Positions 3,766 through 15,982 of a stretch of 15,982 nt of DNA are shown here, piece after piece. Under the pieces are notes generated by a model, which saw only the letters and a list, made by a program, of their open reading frames with translations, did no database searches and was not told the origin of the DNA. Numbering within the stretch: position 1 is the first letter of the stretch; each line of letters starts with the position of its first letter. Both the position numbers and the translations under genes were made by a program. The stretch comes from a virus (lineage: Duplodnaviria; Heunggongvirae; Uroviricota; Caudoviricetes). Where the stretch lies: IMG/VR virus record IMGVR_UViG_2737471818_000008, one strand, 5' to 3'.

Positions 3766-3910
3766 TACCCTGAGGATGATTTACTGTTACCCTGAGGGTA
3801 TTTTTTTATCTTCCCCGTCAATTTTACCATCACCCTTAGGGTAGATTTCCTCCCGATTACCATCACCCTTAGGGTTAATTTCCTTCCGGTAACCATTAGG
3901 CCTGAGGGTA
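3766..3910. repeat. Array of palindromic TACCCT-N-AGGGTA motifs including two 27-bp direct repeats, upstream of alpA
   Basis: Seen directly: TACCCTGAGG (3766-3775), TACCCTGAGGGTA (3788-3800), ACCCTTAGGGTA (3832-3844), ACCCTTAGGGT (3865-3875), CCTGAGGGTA (3901-3910). The 27-bp units TTACCATCACCCTTAGGGTAGATTTCC (3824-3850) and TTACCATCACCCTTAGGGTTAATTTCC (3857-3883) differ at 2 positions. Confidence 0.6.
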
Positions 3911-3978: not shown

Positions 3979-4176
3979 ATGTCAAATACGCTTATTCGTT
4001 TAACAGAAGTTCAGCGTAGAACTGGATATAGCAAGGCATGGATTTATCGCCTTATGGGGCAAGGTAAATTTCCTGCATCAGTTAAAATTGGCTCGCGAGC
4101 TATTGCTTTCGTTGAGAGTGAAATTGACGAGTGGATTAATCAGCGTATTGCGGAATCACGCGGAACAGCTACCTGA
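3979..4176 (+). CDS. alpA: AlpA-family phage transcriptional regulator / excisionase-like DNA-binding protein
   Basis: 65-aa ORF with GAGG 7 nt upstream of the ATG. LIRLTEVQRRTGYSKAWIYRLMGQGKFPASVKIGSRAIAFVESEIDEWI is the characteristic AlpA/Vis-type winged-HTH sequence found after int in P4-like and PICI elements. Confidence 0.85.
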   Translation: MSNTLIRLTEVQRRTGYSKAWIYRLMGQGKFPASVKIGSRAIAFVESEIDEWINQRIAESRGTAT

Positions 4177-4253: not shown

Positions 4254-5054
4254 ATGAAATTTCCAAAAACGCCCGTACAGGGGCGGGGCTTCGTTCGGCC
4301 TGAAAACCAGAATCTGCAAAATTTCGGCGAAATTATCCCGATTATTTCCGGCGTTATTGGCGGGAGTGAAACCACTATTGTTAGCGCCAGAGCGTTACAT
4401 AAGGCGTTAGGTGTAGGGCGCGTTTTCCGTTCGTGGATCAAGGGGCGCATTGAAGAATACGGGTTCACGGAAGGCGTGGATTATGAGGTTGTTGAATATT
4501 TGAGCCGACCCGATCCGGTGAGCGCAAAATCTCGCCAGCAAACCGCTCTTGAGTACATCATCACAGTGAACATGGCGAAAGAACTGGCGATGGTAGAACG
4601 CACCGAACAGGGGCGCGCCGTTCGTCAGTACTTCATCAAATGCGAGGAAGAGCTACACAAGGTTGCGCCTGTACGTTCCGCAGCGTTACGCCGGGAACTG
4701 AAAGCCCGTATCACAGTTGCCAGCTACTTTAAGCCAATGTGTGCCGCGCTGGAGGCGTACCGGGCTGAACTGGGTAAAAACACTCTACAGCACCACTACA
4801 CCACGGAAGCCAATATGCTGGCGCGTATCGTGCTGGGTGGCATGACTGCAAAACAGTGGGCGCAGGCGAACGGCATCACAGGCGAACCACGCGACCACAT
4901 GAGCACGTTGCAGCTTGAGCACCTTTCTTACCTTGAGCAGAGCAATATCACGCTGATTGAGTTAGGCCAGGACTACCACCAGCGGAAAGCTGAATTAATT
5001 CGCCTTTCGCAGCGTTGGTTAGCCCGTCGCATGGAGGAAAACAGCCATGTGTAA
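4254..5054 (+). CDS. Phage antirepressor-like protein (AntA/ORF6N-type N-terminal domain)
   Basis: 266-aa ORF with CAGGAG upstream. The N-terminal stretch SARALHKALGVGRVFRSWIKGRIEEYGFTEGVDYEVV matches the pattern I associate with AntA/ORF6N antirepressor N-domains. The domain assignment is from memory and needs an HMM search. Confidence 0.6.
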   Translation: MKFPKTPVQGRGFVRPENQNLQNFGEIIPIISGVIGGSETTIVSARALHKALGVGRVFRSWIKGRIEEYGFTEGVDYEVVEYLSRPDPVSAKSRQQTALEYIITVNMAKELAMVERTEQGRAVRQYFIKCEEELHKVAPVRSAALRRELKARITVASYFKPMCAALEAYRAELGKNTLQHHYTTEANMLARIVLGGMTAKQWAQANGITGEPRDHMSTLQLEHLSYLEQSNITLIELGQDYHQRKAELIRLSQRWLARRMEENSHV

Positions 5055-7346: not shown

Positions 7347-7637
7347 ATGAAAAAGAAAAATTCTGGCTTTACTGCCAGCGGCCTCTCTCGGCCTGAAATC
7401 CGCCCCGGTGATATTTTCCGGGACACCAGACGCGGGGGACGGGTGGTTATTCGTCACGTTACGCCAGGCAATATCACCTACCGCCGTGAGGCTTACGAAT
7501 ATGACTGCGTAATGCCGCGCCGTCAGTTTGATCGTGATTTTATTCTGGTGGAAAACAAACAACAGGCAGTGGCGAGACGTGCAGCCACGAATATTAAAAA
7601 AATCCGGGCAATGTTGGTTGCGGGAGGTAAGAAGTGA
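7347..7637 (+). CDS. Hypothetical basic protein (96 aa)
   Basis: ORF immediately after the previous stop; its stop overlaps the primase GTG start (GTGA). Confidence 0.6.
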   Translation: MKKKNSGFTASGLSRPEIRPGDIFRDTRRGGRVVIRHVTPGNITYRREAYEYDCVMPRRQFDRDFILVENKQQAVARRAATNIKKIRAMLVAGGKK

Positions 7638-9439
7638 AAAACGCACCGAGTCTAAAATATCAGCCGAAGGATAAATTCACTGAGGTAATCATTTTTGCCG
7701 GGACGGATGCTTACGCCCATGCTCAACACTGGATTGAAAGTGAAGGACGAAAACACGGCGATAACGTGCCTCCTGTTTACCTGGGGCCAAAGCAACTGGC
7801 AGACCTGGCGAATATCCGCATTATTGACGAGAAACGCCGTTTTGCGCGTGTCTATATCGCGGGGGAGATAGAGCCAATCCAGATCAATACTATCGCTGAA
7901 AAGCTGGCGCTGGCTGGCGTACAGGAGGCGAAATTATACAAAGGTATCACCGACCAGGAACCGGAGAACTGGCGCGACTACCTGCAACGGATCCGCGAAC
8001 AGGCTGAGCACGGGGAAGTTTCAGTGATGAAATTAGCTACAAAAAATAGTGGTCTACCCAAGCCTGCATTAAATCAGATGGGAGCCAGCCAGAGAGGGGA
8101 GGTGTTACTTGAACATTATGGAGGAGCACTGGCGATAAATGATGATTCTGATGTAGTTCACCATTACAACGGAATTGTTTGGGAGCCTGTATCTGATAAA
8201 GAACTCCAGCGGTCTATGGCGAAGATTTTTATTGATGCCGAAATTAGTTATTCGCAAAACGCCATTAAATTTGCCGTAGAGACAATGAAATTGAGTCTAC
8301 CTGTTATGGGGGGAGCGGACAGAAATCTTATTGGGTTCAGTAACGGTGTTTTTGATATCAGGACAGGAAATTTTCGGGAACACAACAAAAATGACTGGTT
8401 GTTAAATGCCAGTGAATTACCGTTCAGCCCGCCAGAAGAGGGGGAAACGCTGGCAACACATGCGCCGAATTTCTGGAAGTGGTTGCGTCGTTCGGTGGCG
8501 GATAATGCTCGTAAAGCGGATCGCGTACTGGCGGCATTATTCATGGTACTGGCGAACCGGTACGACTGGCAGTTATTCCTTGAGGTAACGGGGCCGGGCG
8601 GAAGCGGTAAAAGTGTGATGGCGGAGATTTGTACCATGCTGGCGGGTAAGGCCAATACAGTATCGGCGAGCATGAAGGCGCTGGAAGACGCGAGGGAACG
8701 AGCGTTAGTGGTAGGATATTCTCTGATTATCATGCCTGACATGACCCGCTACGCAGGTGATGGTGCTGGGATTAAGGCCATTACAGGCGGTGACAAGGTG
8801 GCTATCGATCCGAAACACAAAGCGCCCTATTCCACGCGCGTTCCTGCGGTAGTGCTGGCAGTAAACAATAATGCCATGTCATTCAGCGACCGTAGTGGGG
8901 GGATCTCGCGTCGACGAGTGATATTTAATTTCTCTGAGGTTGTACCAGAGAACGAACGCGATCCGATGCTGGCGAAAAAGATAGAAGGGGAACTGGCCGT
9001 AGTGATTCGCCATTTGCTTACACGATTTGCCGACCAGGACGAAGCGAAAAGACTACTTTATGAGCAGCAAAAATCAGAAGAAGCACTGTTAATAAAGCGT
9101 GAAGGTGATTCGCTGGTGGACTTCTGCGGTTATCTGATGTCGTTGGTTAAATGTGAGGGGATGATAGTAGGTAATGCAGAAATAGTGCCATTTAGCCCGA
9201 GGCGATATCTGTATCATGCTTATTTGGCTTATATGTCTGCGCATGGTCTGGGAAAACCGGTATCACTGACACGCTTTGGTACAGATATGCCAGGGGCAAT
9301 GGCTGAGTACGGAAAGGAGTACAAGCGGGCTAAATGCACTAAAGGTCCAGATAAAGGGCGAACGATCACAAATGTTCTGTTAGATAAAGATGCTGATGGA
9401 TGGTTACCAGCAGCGGCAGGCATTAACGACAGAACATGA
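7634..9439 (+). CDS. Phage/plasmid primase, P4 family (primase-helicase with C-terminal NTPase domain)
   Basis: 601-aa ORF with GTG start and GGGAGG upstream. Walker A GPGGSGKS and a downstream Walker-B-like acidic motif; overall architecture typical of P4 alpha-like / PICI pri-rep proteins. An iteron array follows immediately. Confidence 0.88.
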   Translation: MKNAPSLKYQPKDKFTEVIIFAGTDAYAHAQHWIESEGRKHGDNVPPVYLGPKQLADLANIRIIDEKRRFARVYIAGEIEPIQINTIAEKLALAGVQEAKLYKGITDQEPENWRDYLQRIREQAEHGEVSVMKLATKNSGLPKPALNQMGASQRGEVLLEHYGGALAINDDSDVVHHYNGIVWEPVSDKELQRSMAKIFIDAEISYSQNAIKFAVETMKLSLPVMGGADRNLIGFSNGVFDIRTGNFREHNKNDWLLNASELPFSPPEEGETLATHAPNFWKWLRRSVADNARKADRVLAALFMVLANRYDWQLFLEVTGPGGSGKSVMAEICTMLAGKANTVSASMKALEDARERALVVGYSLIIMPDMTRYAGDGAGIKAITGGDKVAIDPKHKAPYSTRVPAVVLAVNNNAMSFSDRSGGISRRRVIFNFSEVVPENERDPMLAKKIEGELAVVIRHLLTRFADQDEAKRLLYEQQKSEEALLIKREGDSLVDFCGYLMSLVKCEGMIVGNAEIVPFSPRRYLYHAYLAYMSAHGLGKPVSLTRFGTDMPGAMAEYGKEYKRAKCTKGPDKGRTITNVLLDKDADGWLPAAAGINDRT

Positions 9440-9473
9440 TACGAAATTTATAAGTTGAAACTTAAAAGTAGAC

Positions 9474-9806
9474 GGTTGGTAGACAGATACACTTAACCCT
9501 CTACCAACCATCTACTAATTAATGTTTTGAATTATATAGGTATTTTTAATGTGGTAGAGAGGTGGACAGTTTATTTTATATTTCTAAACCACGGGGGTAT
9601 CTAAAAATAGATAGTTATGGGTTCATTTTTAAAATTTTTCTTTTAACTATCTACACTGTCTACCATTTAGTAAAAATCATTAATTATCAATGTATTAATA
9701 CGGTAGAGAGTTGGTAGACAGTTTGCAGATTGTTTTTTGTTATGTGTGAACAACATTAAATAAATCAATCAATTATATCGATAGACAGTTGGTAGACAGT
9801 TGTAAC
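9474..9806. repeat. Iteron array, probable replication origin: about 8-9 copies of GGTAGA(C/G)AG(TT) in both orientations in an AT-rich segment
   Basis: Seen directly: GGTTGGTAGACAG (9474-9486) with inverted partner CTACCAACCA (9501-9510); GTGGTAGAGAGGTGGACAGTT (9551-9571); ACTGTCTACCA (9655-9665, inverted); CGGTAGAGAGTTGGTAGACAGTT (9701-9723); tandem TAGACAGTTGGTAGACAGTT (9782-9801). Directly downstream of the primase gene. Confidence 0.65.
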
Positions 9807-9807
9807 G

Positions 9808-10350
9808 ATGGGGCAAAGCATGACTAAGCTGACCATTAACAGAAAACCGAAAGGCATTTACGGCACGCCGCAGAAAACGACGCAGGCGGCACAGGAGCAG
9901 GATAAAACCACGTCGGCGCATAAAGTGATGCCCGGTAACCAGAAAGCGCAGCAGAAGCCCACAGGGGCGACACCGTGGCGGCATATGACCAAGCGCCAGC
10001 GCAAAAACCGCAGGCGCATTAACCGCCTCACTGAGTTGTGGCCTGAATTATTCAGCCGGGAAGCACCGAAGCCGCTTAAGGTGGGGATATTCGACGACCT
10101 GATGCAGGATCTCGCCGTCAGGGGGCTGGCATTCGGTCTAGGGGCATTGCGTGCGACGCTGGCATCTTATGCACAGTGTCCGCGCTATTACCGCGCCTTA
10201 ATGGCTGGTGGGGTACGCTACGACCTGAAAGGCCAGCCGTGCGGCGAGGTGACACCACAGGAACAACAGGACGCAGAAACGCGGCTGGTGGCGCTGAATG
10301 AGAAGCGCAAACGTCAGCGCCGGGTAGCAAAGGAGAAAACAGGCGCATGA
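9808..10350 (+). CDS. ProQ/FinO-domain RNA-binding protein (RNA chaperone family)
   Basis: The segment ELFSREAPKPLKVGIFDDLMQDL...YAQCPRYYRALMAGGVRYDLKGQPCGEVT aligns by eye with the E. coli ProQ N-terminal FinO-like domain (PLKIGIFQDL...RVDLDGNPCGEL). Basic, low-complexity N-terminus. The start may be ATG 9808 or ATG 9820. Confidence 0.8.
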   Translation: MGQSMTKLTINRKPKGIYGTPQKTTQAAQEQDKTTSAHKVMPGNQKAQQKPTGATPWRHMTKRQRKNRRRINRLTELWPELFSREAPKPLKVGIFDDLMQDLAVRGLAFGLGALRATLASYAQCPRYYRALMAGGVRYDLKGQPCGEVTPQEQQDAETRLVALNEKRKRQRRVAKEKTGA

Positions 10351-10634
10351 TTCACGACAGCAAAGCGGAAGCACTGGAAGCGCGTGGTCTGTACCGGAGA
10401 GCGGCGGCGCGGTGGGCTGAGGTCATCATGCTGGCGAATGATGACAAGGCACGGGAACAGGCGGCAAAACGTCGCGCGGAATGTATCCGCAAGGCAGCAC
10501 GCCCACCAGCAAGGCAGGATAATTTCGGGGAGATGCGCGAAACCATCAGCCGGGCACATGCCGGGATGGGATTACATCAGCCCAATGGTAAGGCATTCAG
10601 GAAATACCCTGGATCGAAAAATTGCAGTCAGTGA
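10347..10634 (+). CDS. Small regulatory protein, possibly a PerC-family transcriptional activator
   Basis: 95-aa ORF translationally coupled to the upstream gene (ATGA overlap). The N-terminal AEALEARGLYRRAAARWAEVI resembles the conserved N-terminus I recall for PerC-family proteins. Family assignment is from memory. Confidence 0.6.
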   Translation: MIHDSKAEALEARGLYRRAAARWAEVIMLANDDKAREQAAKRRAECIRKAARPPARQDNFGEMRETISRAHAGMGLHQPNGKAFRKYPGSKNCSQ

Positions 10635-12369: not shown

Positions 12370-12897
12370 ATGCTGATGAGTAAGGCAGAATATGCCAAAC
12401 ACAAAGGCGTAAGCCGCCAGACAGTTTACGACTGGATCGAGAAAGGCGAAGTGGTCATGTCCGGTAAAAAAATCGATGTGGAAGCGACAGAGCAGCGGAA
12501 CAGCCCACCAGCACAGGGAAAAGACACAGTTTCTGAAATGTGGCCAGAGAGAACGCTGGAAATGACGTGGGGCGAGTTCTGGAAAGCAGTTAAGGCCAGA
12601 GACGGTAAAATTCCTGCGCCAGCAACGGACGAGGGCATACAGCAGCGTGTGCTGGATGCAGCCGGGGAATTAGGCTGGGAAGTGCACTTTCTTGATGATG
12701 GTGCTATCTGCCTTGAGGATTGCGACGGGCAGCATTACTTTGAACAATACAATTTGCGAGGTAATGCCAGGCTGGCAATTCGTATGCTGCGTTGCGAACT
12801 CTGCTATGTTGCAGGTGATTATGCCGATGAACTGGAATCATGGAGTGAAGCCGGGCTAAACGCCCTGGCTGAATGGGAAAAATCAGACCATCAATGA
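12370..12897 (+). CDS. HTH DNA-binding protein (175 aa); candidate small-terminase-like / packaging-redirection or regulatory protein
   Basis: The N-terminal SKAEYAKHKGVSRQTVYDWIEKGEV is a recognisable helix-turn-helix. The gene is followed immediately by a structured repeat array. Confidence 0.65.
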   Translation: MLMSKAEYAKHKGVSRQTVYDWIEKGEVVMSGKKIDVEATEQRNSPPAQGKDTVSEMWPERTLEMTWGEFWKAVKARDGKIPAPATDEGIQQRVLDAAGELGWEVHFLDDGAICLEDCDGQHYFEQYNLRGNARLAIRMLRCELCYVAGDYADELESWSEAGLNALAEWEKSDHQ

Positions 12898-12901
12898 CAT
12901 C

Positions 12902-13195
12902 AAAAAGTGTCAAGTTGAGCAGCTTGCCGGGTTGACACTTTACACTCTGAACGCGAAAAAGTGTCAACCTCGCTGTAAGCCCCGCCGTTACTGGCCTTGC
13001 GCCAGATTTACCACGTCAAAAAGCCGAAAAAATCGCGAAAAGTGTCAAGTTGACATGCTTAGAAATGCCAGGGATGGTTAAGTTTTGTTAAGGTTTTTCG
13101 TGAAAAAGTGTCAAGTGTGTCAACCTACGATATTAAGATTTATTAAGGTCTTAAGCCGGAAAGTGTCAACCAGCCCCTAAGATTTCCTAAGGTGT
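12902..13195. repeat. Two-motif repeat array: at least 6 copies of (A)AAGTGTCAA(C/G) interleaved with 3 copies of TAAG(A/T)TTT-NN-TAAGGT; candidate packaging (cos/pac) recognition or operator region
   Basis: Seen directly: GTGTCAAG (12907-12914) with inverted GTTGACAC (12931-12938); GTGTCAAC (12961-12968); palindrome GTGTCAAGTTGACA (13042-13055); tandem GTGTCAAG-TGTGTCAAC (13108-13124); GTGTCAAC (13163-13170). Interleaved TTAAGTTTTGTTAAGGT (13079-13095), TTAAGATTTATTAAGGT (13132-13148), CTAAGATTTCCTAAGGT (13177-13193). Confidence 0.6.
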
Positions 13196-14233: not shown

Positions 14234-15982
14234 GTGAAAATATCTTTTTTTGGCGTAAATAACTTTAGGACAATATCAGGTGGCATTGGTAATAATAGAA
14301 TAATATTTAAAGATAGCAATACGCTTTTCATTTACGGGGCAAACAATGCTGGAAAATCAACTTATTTAAAAGCATATATGTTTTTTTACAGTAATGAAAA
14401 ACCTATCATTGATGATTTCTTTAAACGAGACGACAATAATTCTATTGAGTTTGAATTAGAAGTTCAACTTGATGACTTGGATAAAGAAAGAATAGAAGCC
14501 AAAGCACCGAAGCAAAAGGAAAGTTATAAGAAGTATTTAAATAATGATTTTATTAGAATTAAGAAAGTATGGAGTAAAAATGGAACAAGAATAGAGGATA
14601 AAAATTATACTTATGATTATAGTAAAGGAGATAGCGGCGAGTATGATGAAGTTGGATATGCAACGATTGGTTTGCATCAGGTCTTCCAATCTTGTTTGCC
14701 AAAACCTGTATTTATAAAGGCTATGCCAACAGAGGAAGAAGCTAAGAAGATTCTTAATGAAATCCTAAAGATGATGGCTGAAAATACACTTAAAACATCT
14801 GATCTTGATGAATTAAAAGCAGCTCAGAATAAAATAAAAGAATTACAAGACAAAATGTATGATCCAGAATTGATTGAGACCTATCAGAATTCAGTTAACG
14901 GATACTTTAACAAGATATTCGGTGATACTGCTATATGCTTCAAAGATCAAAAAGATAGGGTTGTTTGGACGGAGAATAAGCTTGGCAGAGATTTTGAAAT
15001 TGAGTTTATGAAAAAAAATAGCCAAGGGGAGTTTGATGGCAATATCCCTTCAAGTTATAGCAGTGTAGGTCATGGAACTATTAGGACTGCAATATTTACA
15101 TTATTATTGATGAGAGATGTAGCAGAGCGTTTTGAAAGAAGGCTTGGACGTAAGGATTACATGGTTCTGTTTGAGGAGCCTGAGCTATTTCTCTATCCTA
15201 GAATGGTGAAGGAACTTCGTGAATTGATTTATCAGGTGAGCACTGAAGACCTTCCATATCAAGTACTTTGTGCCTCACATTCATCTTCCATGATAGATCT
15301 TTCAAAGCCTAAATCTTCGATAATACGATTAGTTAATAATTCTACTGGAACTAAATCATATCAAATTAATGATCAATTTTTGAAGGATGCAAAAGGCATT
15401 GCTACAAATGCTGAACTTAAACAAGAAATGTATGAAGTTTTGAGGTTTAACCCTTATATTTGTGAATCATTCTACGCTGATGAGGTGCTTCTGATTGAGG
15501 GGCCAACAGAAGAAATAATATGTAGAGCTTTTTTACAAGAAACCCCATCAGATAAATCTATATTCGTATTGAACTGTGGTACGGTTAATAACATTCCTTT
15601 TTATCAAAAAATCTTCTCAAGGTTTAATATAAAATATCATGTGATCTGTGATACAGATAAAGCAGAAATAGTTACCGTAGATCAATCTGGCAATGCAGAT
15701 TTTGATTCTGGAATACAGAAAACAATTTCAGAACAGTATAGGAATGATTGTACTGCAATGAATGGTAATATAGGACTACTTCGAACTCATAACATTACAT
15801 TTGAACCTGCTCATCAGGATGTTAGTATTCCTGACTTTTTGAGATTTGTTGATTGCGGTGATAGAAGCAAACCATTTAATGCAAACTTGTACTGGAAGGA
15901 TATTTTAAGGCCAAATATATCACATCAAGATATAAATAAAGTGCCTATAATTAAGTATTTGAATGAAATAATAGCACATTAA
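14234..15982 (+). CDS. OLD-family ATP-dependent nuclease (N-terminal ABC-type ATPase plus C-terminal TOPRIM domain); class 1 OLD or Gabija GajA-like; candidate anti-phage defence protein
   Basis: 582-aa ORF with GTG start and AAGGAAA upstream, in strongly AT-rich DNA. Motifs read directly: Walker A GANNAGKST (near 14336-14362), Walker B MVLFEEPELF (near 15161-15190), H-loop-like ASHS, TOPRIM glutamate LLIEGPTEE (near 15491-15517) and DxD ICDTDK (near 15644-15661). Size matches P2 Old and GajA. Confidence 0.85.
   Translation: MKISFFGVNNFRTISGGIGNNRIIFKDSNTLFIYGANNAGKSTYLKAYMFFYSNEKPIIDDFFKRDDNNSIEFELEVQLDDLDKERIEAKAPKQKESYKKYLNNDFIRIKKVWSKNGTRIEDKNYTYDYSKGDSGEYDEVGYATIGLHQVFQSCLPKPVFIKAMPTEEEAKKILNEILKMMAENTLKTSDLDELKAAQNKIKELQDKMYDPELIETYQNSVNGYFNKIFGDTAICFKDQKDRVVWTENKLGRDFEIEFMKKNSQGEFDGNIPSSYSSVGHGTIRTAIFTLLLMRDVAERFERRLGRKDYMVLFEEPELFLYPRMVKELRELIYQVSTEDLPYQVLCASHSSSMIDLSKPKSSIIRLVNNSTGTKSYQINDQFLKDAKGIATNAELKQEMYEVLRFNPYICESFYADEVLLIEGPTEEIICRAFLQETPSDKSIFVLNCGTVNNIPFYQKIFSRFNIKYHVICDTDKAEIVTVDQSGNADFDSGIQKTISEQYRNDCTAMNGNIGLLRTHNITFEPAHQDVSIPDFLRFVDCGDRSKPFNANLYWKDILRPNISHQDINKVPIIKYLNEIIAH

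Follow-up and report, generated by a model that had tools for sequence, protein, structure and literature searches.

The intergenic region described here lies at positions 9440-9819 of a 15,982-bp window, the whole of the stretch that was analysed, from virus record IMGVR_UViG_2737471818_000008. The window consists of a piece of Escherichia coli chromosome followed by an inserted island whose genes all read rightward. The region, a feature without strand of 380 bp and G+C content 0.255-0.355, begins directly after the stop codon of pri-rep, the replicase gene of the island (7634-9439, + strand, 601 residues, the stop codon ending at 9439). The first of a series of short repeats, or iterons, starts at 9467, and the last ends 19 bp before the start codon, at 9820, of a gene of the ProQ/FinO family (9820-10350, + strand), the first gene 3' of the repeats. 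RefSeq genomes carry no annotated features in this region. An original prediction, made from the window's letters, had placed an iteron-type replication origin here, in a roughly 330-bp AT-rich segment at 9474-9806 immediately after the replicase gene. Those coordinates are correct to within a few bases, and the AT-rich character of the segment is borne out by a G+C content of 0.255-0.265 over 9500-9799, against 0.44-0.60 in the flanks.

The repeats are far more numerous than chance would provide. Allowing at most one mismatch, GGTAGASAG matches 12 times in the window, with nine of the 12 matches lying within 9478-9799, whereas shuffled sequences give 3.19 matches per whole window and none of 200 shuffles reaches 12. 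A position weight matrix based on the eight clearest copies locates 13 sites between 9467 and 9801, ten strong and three weak; the sites scoring at least 11 bits number ten, all in this interval and none elsewhere in the window. As the matrix was derived from the same sites, the consensus and shuffle count constitutes the independent test. About eight or nine copies of GGTAGA(C/G)AG(TT) had been predicted: the repeats are real, occur in both orientations and exceed chance, but the count is 13.

The repeat unit is 11 bp long, GGTAGA(C/G)(A/G)GTT. In the matrix scan, units start at 9467, 9478, 9553, 9561, 9606, 9702, 9713, 9780 and 9791 on the + strand and at 9495, 9506, 9645 and 9654 on the - strand. 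Most are paired, with starts 11 bp apart in four pairs and 8-9 bp apart in two. The left set (9467-9516, matrix scan) comprises four units, with 9467-9477 and 9478-9488 on the + strand facing 9495-9505 and 9506-9516 on the - strand. It forms a 17-bp inverted repeat (I4) that is 94% complementary and folds as single-stranded DNA at -12.7 kcal/mol (z -5). To its right lie a + strand pair, GGTAGAGAG / GGTGGACAGTT, with 8-bp spacing (9553-9571), a weak + strand iteron seen in the matrix scan (9606-9616), and a - strand pair, GGTAGACAGTG / TGTAGATAGTT, identified by both the consensus and the matrix (9645-9664). The series is completed by two + strand pairs with 11-bp spacing, GGTAGAGAGTT GGTAGACAGTT (9702-9723) and GATAGACAGTT GGTAGACAGTT (9780-9801). 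The last forward pair is included in a duplication with a spacing of 78 bp, in which 9686-9723 is repeated as 9764-9801 with 82% identity. A palindrome (I1) spans 9608-9653, and the iterons at 9506, 9606 and 9645 are degenerate.

The groups of iterons are separated by three of the ten least stable 40-mers of the window. The first of these spacers (9510-9549, G+C 0.15) is the second least stable 40-mer overall, with a nearest-neighbour free energy of -39.3 kcal/mol against a window mean of -54.0 kcal/mol, and is a candidate unwinding element. The central AT-rich stretch (9598-9637, G+C 0.17), inside which the weak iteron at 9606 lies, is also among the ten, and the third spacer (9661-9700, G+C 0.15) ranks third least stable. 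Within the AT-rich centre is a G-rich block, CTAAACCACGGGGGTAT (9584-9600), that is invariant in all eight aligned origins from E. coli and Escherichia ruysiae.

Scans for other kinds of element in the region gave little. Rfam returned no RNA family there, either from the whole window at gathering scores or from 9300-9950 by E-value, where the sole match had E = 0.82. Matches to DnaA boxes numbered 17 against 16.2 expected, and the single match in the region, with one mismatch (9745-9753), is at the level of chance. Two small open reading frames (ORFs), at 9562-9717 (+ strand) and 9769-9984 (- strand), were considered as genes and rejected because aligned relatives carry indels of 1-3 nt within them.

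The protein encoded by pri-rep, Pri-Rep, comprises a TOPRIM-like N-terminal domain of about 145 residues, a D5_N domain, an SF3 helicase and a C-terminal winged-helix origin-binding domain, with Pfam matches to D5_N, DUF5906 and Pox_D5. Residues 146-592, which take in the helicase and the winged-helix domain, are 49% identical to the alpha protein of phage P4, and the combination that characterizes initiators of P4-type origins, an SF3 helicase with an alpha-homologous C-terminal winged helix, is present. The origin-binding domain (residues 491-592, encoded at 9104-9409, + strand) matches the P4 origin-binding domain of PDB entry 1KA8 (phmmer E 1.1e-18). An AlphaFold model of residues 482-601 (pLDDT 82) likewise has 1KA8 as its best Foldseek match (E 3.5e-9, TM 0.89, root-mean-square deviation 1.9 Å), the next matches being the winged-helix domains of RFX5 and ORC/Cdc6. 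The wing of this domain is a β-hairpin at residues 561-585, KEYKRAKCTKGPDKGRTITNVLLDK (encoded at 9314-9388, + strand), with strands predicted in the model at residues 565-567 and 577-583 and a loop of sequence CTKGPDKGR. Relative to P4 alpha it contains a five-residue insertion, GPDKG, and it is the probable determinant of iteron specificity.

At the other end of the protein, the N-terminal primase domain of P4 alpha appears to be replaced by the 145-residue domain. The N-terminal 150 residues of Pri-Rep have no Pfam or NCBIfam match, and a structure search with the domain gave weak TOPRIM similarity only. With the P4-alpha-type primase domain apparently lacking, the primase activity in the predicted primase/helicase is putative.

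The connection between protein and repeats was explored by comparison of about 40 loci, comprising 34 fetched from other Enterobacterales together with E. coli loci, P4 and EcCICFT073, a phage-inducible chromosomal island (PICI). Each was assigned an iteron class from the commonest 8-mers downstream of its replicase gene, giving six classes: GGTAGAC, GGTGAAC, GGTGGAG, GGCGGAC, GGTGGAC and GGTAGAT. Differences in class go with the wing segment rather than with the N terminus or the helicase core. When protein identity was used to predict shared repeat class over 703 locus pairs, the wing gave an area under the curve of 0.947, the remainder of the binding domain 0.809, the helicase core 0.692 and the N terminus 0.569, values that are descriptive and not probabilities because the loci are related by descent. 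In 52 pairs the cores are at least 85% identical but the repeats differ, and here mean wing identity is 35%. The relation is not one-to-one, as EcCICFT073 and two further loci (L034/L035) have the GGTAGA core with a different wing.

Individual loci behave as natural domain swaps. Compared with the window, the replicase of one E. coli island, L003, has a core that is 93% identical but a wing of only 36% identity (L003 or P4 wing, KRKTKHGLRSNVTL), does not share the last 40 residues, and is followed by P4-type iterons, GGTGAACAG. In L037, the core is 73% and the wing 72% identical to those of the window, and the iterons are GGTAGAC. The first 128 codons of pri-rep are shared at 94% identity with L002, where they are fused to a DUF927 helicase and unrelated repeats, GTATCCCG, follow. 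The N-terminal domain was considered as the specificity determinant and rejected, since L002 and L006-L013 share the N terminus while their iterons differ. Although the repeat sequence changes from one iteron class to another, the sites mostly retain their order and orientation and the AT-rich gaps are mostly preserved, as would be expected for binding sites co-evolving with their protein. Taken together, these sequences provide good comparative evidence that Pri-Rep would bind the repeats.

Within E. coli, the origin region is present in 104-105 of 5,426 complete genomes, and the full-length pri-rep allele in an equal number (104); E. coli EC11 (NZ_CP027255) is one carrier strain. About 730 further complete genomes contain a replicase whose centre is approximately 84% identical at the DNA level but whose two ends are different. 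Eight aligned origins from close relatives, one from E. ruysiae and seven from diverse E. coli strains, are 95% identical overall and have the same layout. Conservation of iteron cores and spacers did not differ significantly among these eight origins (p = 0.07), a comparison that is underpowered and was not used as evidence.

Some copies of the region have been disrupted. E. coli AH20K059 (L004) has a 92%-identical allele with the same GGTAGAC repeats. An IS3-family element lies within its origin (L004 3807-4130) after ...TTATCAATG, corresponding to about position 9692 of the window, and the right-hand iteron pairs are removed. In approximately 7 of the 105 genomes (including hits H104 and H105) the match is confined to query positions 1-253, a pattern compatible with the same truncation. 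Islands with such a truncated origin are probably replication-dead.

Experimental work on EcCICFT073 provides a direct point of reference. A clone carrying pri and ori of that island replicates and is maintained, whereas clones lacking either ori or pri are not (PMC6092414). Read in the CFT073 genome, its origin contains CTGTCTACC, GGTAGACA and GGTAGATA, with the same GGTAGAC/T core as the window, and the deletion primer used in that study (PMC6092414) contains these repeats. The suggestion that the window iteron represents a distinct specificity does not survive this comparison: its core is common to the cloned EcCICFT073 origin, so that among PICIs the specificity is not new.

From these observations we conclude with high confidence that 9440-9819 is the replication origin of a PICI located at tRNA-Thr in E. 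coli. The analysis itself establishes that the repeats exist and cluster non-randomly, that the AT-rich spacers are of low stability, that Pri-Rep is homologous to the P4 origin-binding domain, that wing and iteron covary, and that the region matches a published origin confirmed by cloning. That an iteron-type origin immediately follows the replicase, as it does in PICIs, had been predicted and is upheld by the PICI hallmarks of the island (described below), the published layout of such origins, the P4-alpha-type binding domain and the covariation of wing and repeats. Binding of Pri-Rep, melting and initiation within the region would follow by analogy with P4 alpha and with the cloned EcCICFT073 fragment, as would autonomous replication on induction; the island would presumably also depend on a helper phage.

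The events at the origin may be envisaged as follows. On induction, AlpA would switch on the rightward operon, so that Pri-Rep is made, and the C-terminal winged helix of Pri-Rep would bind the paired 11-bp iterons on both strands, with the wing hairpin (residues 561-585) selecting the iteron sequence. Rings of the SF3 helicase could then assemble on both sides of the AT-rich spacers and melt them, allowing replication of the excised island circle to start. Primers might be supplied by the small TOPRIM-like N-terminal domain of Pri-Rep or by the host primase.

A broader proposal concerns the P4-alpha/PICI Pri-Rep family as a whole, and we regard the arguments for and against it as evenly balanced. 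In this proposal, the wing, about 25 residues long, would act as a compact, swappable module and decide which iteron variant, out of six or more, is recognized; the variants share a GGNNNNNAGTT frame and diverge at its positions 3-7. Recombination of the module together with the origin would generate mutually orthogonal replicons among co-resident satellites, the wing with the GPDKG insertion and the GGTAGAC iterons of the window being one such class. If this is true, origin specificity should be predictable from sequence and engineerable.

The position of the cluster invites a different interpretation, in which it would be a cis-acting replication enhancer that Pri-Rep binds while synthesis starts elsewhere in the island. 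The GenBank annotation of P4 shows the cluster directly after alpha to be crr (4291-4590), a cis-required region, with ori at 9086-9809, some 4.5 kb away; the placement of P4 ori after alpha, on which the original prediction had drawn, was therefore imprecise. The cluster of the window occupies the crr position, directly after the alpha homologue. Clusters of P4-type relatives share sequence with crr, part of the L003 origin (4077-4105) being recognizably homologous to it, and the duplicated right-hand iteron pair (9686-9723 and 9764-9801) recalls the direct duplication of crr. Nevertheless, no second iteron cluster was found in the window; the cluster itself contains AT-rich DNA of low stability; and the pri-ori fragment of EcCICFT073 alone sufficed for replication (PMC6092414). 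We consider a crr-like role unlikely.

It is also conceivable that the repeats act mainly as transcriptional operators through which Pri-Rep or another regulator of the island governs its own operon or the ProQ/FinO-PerC genes, with no origin function. Iterons in plasmids double as autoregulatory sites, and the 19 bp between the last iteron and the ProQ/FinO start codon would suit such a role. The absence of any + strand terminator in the scan between pri-rep and the ProQ/FinO gene speaks for it, too, while the promoter-like matches in the region, three against 2.1 expected, are at the level of chance and speak against it, so that the scan as a whole is neutral. However, the cluster stays behind the replicase even though its neighbour on the 3' side varies from locus to locus (ProQ/FinO, the SSB operon, a capsid gene, IS3 or att); in P4 this neighbour is att and in L040 the capsid gene. 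With a binding domain that is homologous to an origin-binding domain, it is very improbable that the repeats are operators in the main, although they may have a regulatory side-role alongside origin function. Equally, the region could be an origin by descent that no longer works in this island, given that some copies are damaged (the IS3 insertion of L004 and the roughly 7 of 105 genomes matching only query positions 1-253) and that the window has degenerate iterons at 9506, 9606 and 9645. The replicase ORF of the window is intact at 601 residues, though, ten strong iterons are retained, and the layout is maintained in E. ruysiae and seven diverse E. coli strains, all of which make an inactive relic extremely doubtful.

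The island that this origin would serve is, by its gene content, an E. coli PICI at tRNA-Thr. The chromosomal piece of the window contains proA (1-1254), a member of the aldehyde dehydrogenase family, and tRNA-Thr(CGT) (1369-1444), which is the attachment site of the island, the att core TCCTATTATC lying at 1428-1437 within the 3' end of the tRNA gene. A second copy of TCCTATTATC, marking attR, was searched for and none was found in the window, so the island extends beyond its right edge. Adjoining the tRNA gene is a tyrosine integrase gene (1611-2825, + strand), followed by an int-alpA RNA motif (Rfam RF02996, 45.5 bits, 2870-2937), which precedes an ORF at 2948, and by the gene for the AlpA regulator (3979-4176, + strand; PF05930, E 2.4e-19). 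An AntA-type antirepressor gene and several small genes are further members of the island. The PerC gene (10347-10634, + strand) is cargo, as is the ProQ/FinO-family gene, and the main ORFs of the whole window are all on the + strand. The integrase at tRNA-Thr, the int-alpA motif, AlpA, one-way transcription and this cargo are hallmarks of PICIs. So, too, is the lack of a phage structural and lysis set, only a TerS-like gene and a DUF2213 morphogenesis-type gene having been found in the window. The P4 genes sid, delta and psu were not found among the ORFs scanned.

Several other features of the island deserve mention. A 33-bp tandem duplication, TTACCATCACCCTTAGGGTAGATTTCCTCCCGA (3824-3889, the second copy 88% identical), precedes the alpA start by about 90 bp and may be a regulatory site for AlpA, the master activator of the island. 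At its N terminus, the product of the ORF at 12370-12897 resembles terminase small subunits (phrog_57, E 1.4e-7), and it also matches HTH_17 weakly. Directly 3' of this TerS-like ORF, at 12905-13169, are six exact copies of AAGTGTCAA, five on the + strand and one on the - strand, together with GGTTGACACTT variants. These repeats of the 12370-13172 segment are a candidate pac or TerS-binding site through which the island would be packaged. A low-G+C gene at 14234-15982, which continues past the right edge of the window, encodes an OLD-family ATP-dependent nuclease (AAA_15/AAA_21 with an OLD-like TOPRIM) that is probably anti-phage cargo.

The analysis gives a functional label to a stretch left unannotated by RefSeq in about 100 complete E. 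coli genomes. It confirms that the tRNA-Thr island holds the replication module of a mobilizable phage satellite with PerC, ProQ/FinO-family and OLD-nuclease cargo. Of greater use than the identification of the origin are the natural domain swaps, which map the choice of iteron to the wing of the P4-type origin-binding domain. P4, the capsid-forming PICIs and the classical PICIs emerge as users of one common initiator/iteron system with a handful of specificity classes, and the current picture of how such elements replicate is unchanged.

Among known systems, P4 offers a close parallel. The two have homologous initiator proteins, a nearly identical iteron frame and a cluster straight after the initiator gene, which in P4 is crr; they differ in that P4 has two clusters, ori and crr, about 4.5 kb apart, and the window a single one. 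The P4 type I iteron is TGTTCACC (GGTGAACA), in full GGTGAACAGT(T), whereas the window uses GGTAGAC/G. That the iteron differs from that of P4 had been correctly predicted, but GGTAGACAGTT and GGTGAACAGTT are distinguished only at positions 4-5. GGTGAACA is used by P4 and L003-type relatives. Capsid-encoding PICI-like islands of E. coli, Klebsiella and their relatives have exactly the P4 type I iteron (CTGTTCACC / GGTGAACAG) and a P4-alpha-like wing, as seen in L003 (3869-4155, E. coli DSM 103246, with CTGTTCACC repeats), L040 (vB_KppS-Ant) and L006-L015. The region does not resemble the oriV of plasmids that use RepA, π or TrfA, as neither a WH1-WH2 Rep protein nor DnaA boxes beyond the level of chance were found and the initiator is an SF3 helicase fusion.

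A further likeness is to the Staphylococcus aureus pathogenicity islands (SaPIs), such as SaPIbov1, in which, in the account given by PMC6092414, the origin follows rep and two sets of iterons surround an AT-rich region. A SaPI rep-ori fragment replicates alone, as summarized in the same source (PMC6092414). The SaPIs differ from the island of the window in host lineage and in the layout of transcription.

The closest counterparts are the Gram-negative PICIs, as defined by Fillol-Salom et al. (2018, ISME J; PMC6092414), whose origins lie immediately 3' of pri-rep and have AT-rich DNA bordered by sets of iterons (PMC6092414). In the window, 13 iterons are arranged around three AT-rich spacers in that same location, and EcCICFT073 has in common with it the origin 3' of pri-rep, iterons in both orientations flanking AT-rich DNA and the GGTAGAC/T core, as well as the general type of island, with int, AlpA, one-way transcription and PerC cargo. 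There are differences, however: the Pri-Rep of EcCICFT073 is just 43% identical to that of the window and has a different wing sequence, the origin of the window, at 380 bp, exceeds the roughly 290 bp of its EcCICFT073 counterpart and includes an additional, duplicated pair of iterons, and a ProQ/FinO-family gene lies downstream in place of the SSB operon. The tRNA-Thr/proA site is not among the E. coli PICI sites in Table S1 of PMC6092414, and a PICI at this site, EcCIMP1 of E. coli MP1, was described later (PMC11773190). EcCIMP1 has the same att core, TCCTATTATC, and a related integrase, but identity of the two islands was rejected, as its replicase is of the TOPRIM+DUF927 type and its cargo and other genes are different. 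The site is thus host to a mosaic family of satellites. Absent from Table S1 and distinct from EcCIMP1, the island of the window is thus an undescribed relative, with an origin of a kind that has already been described.
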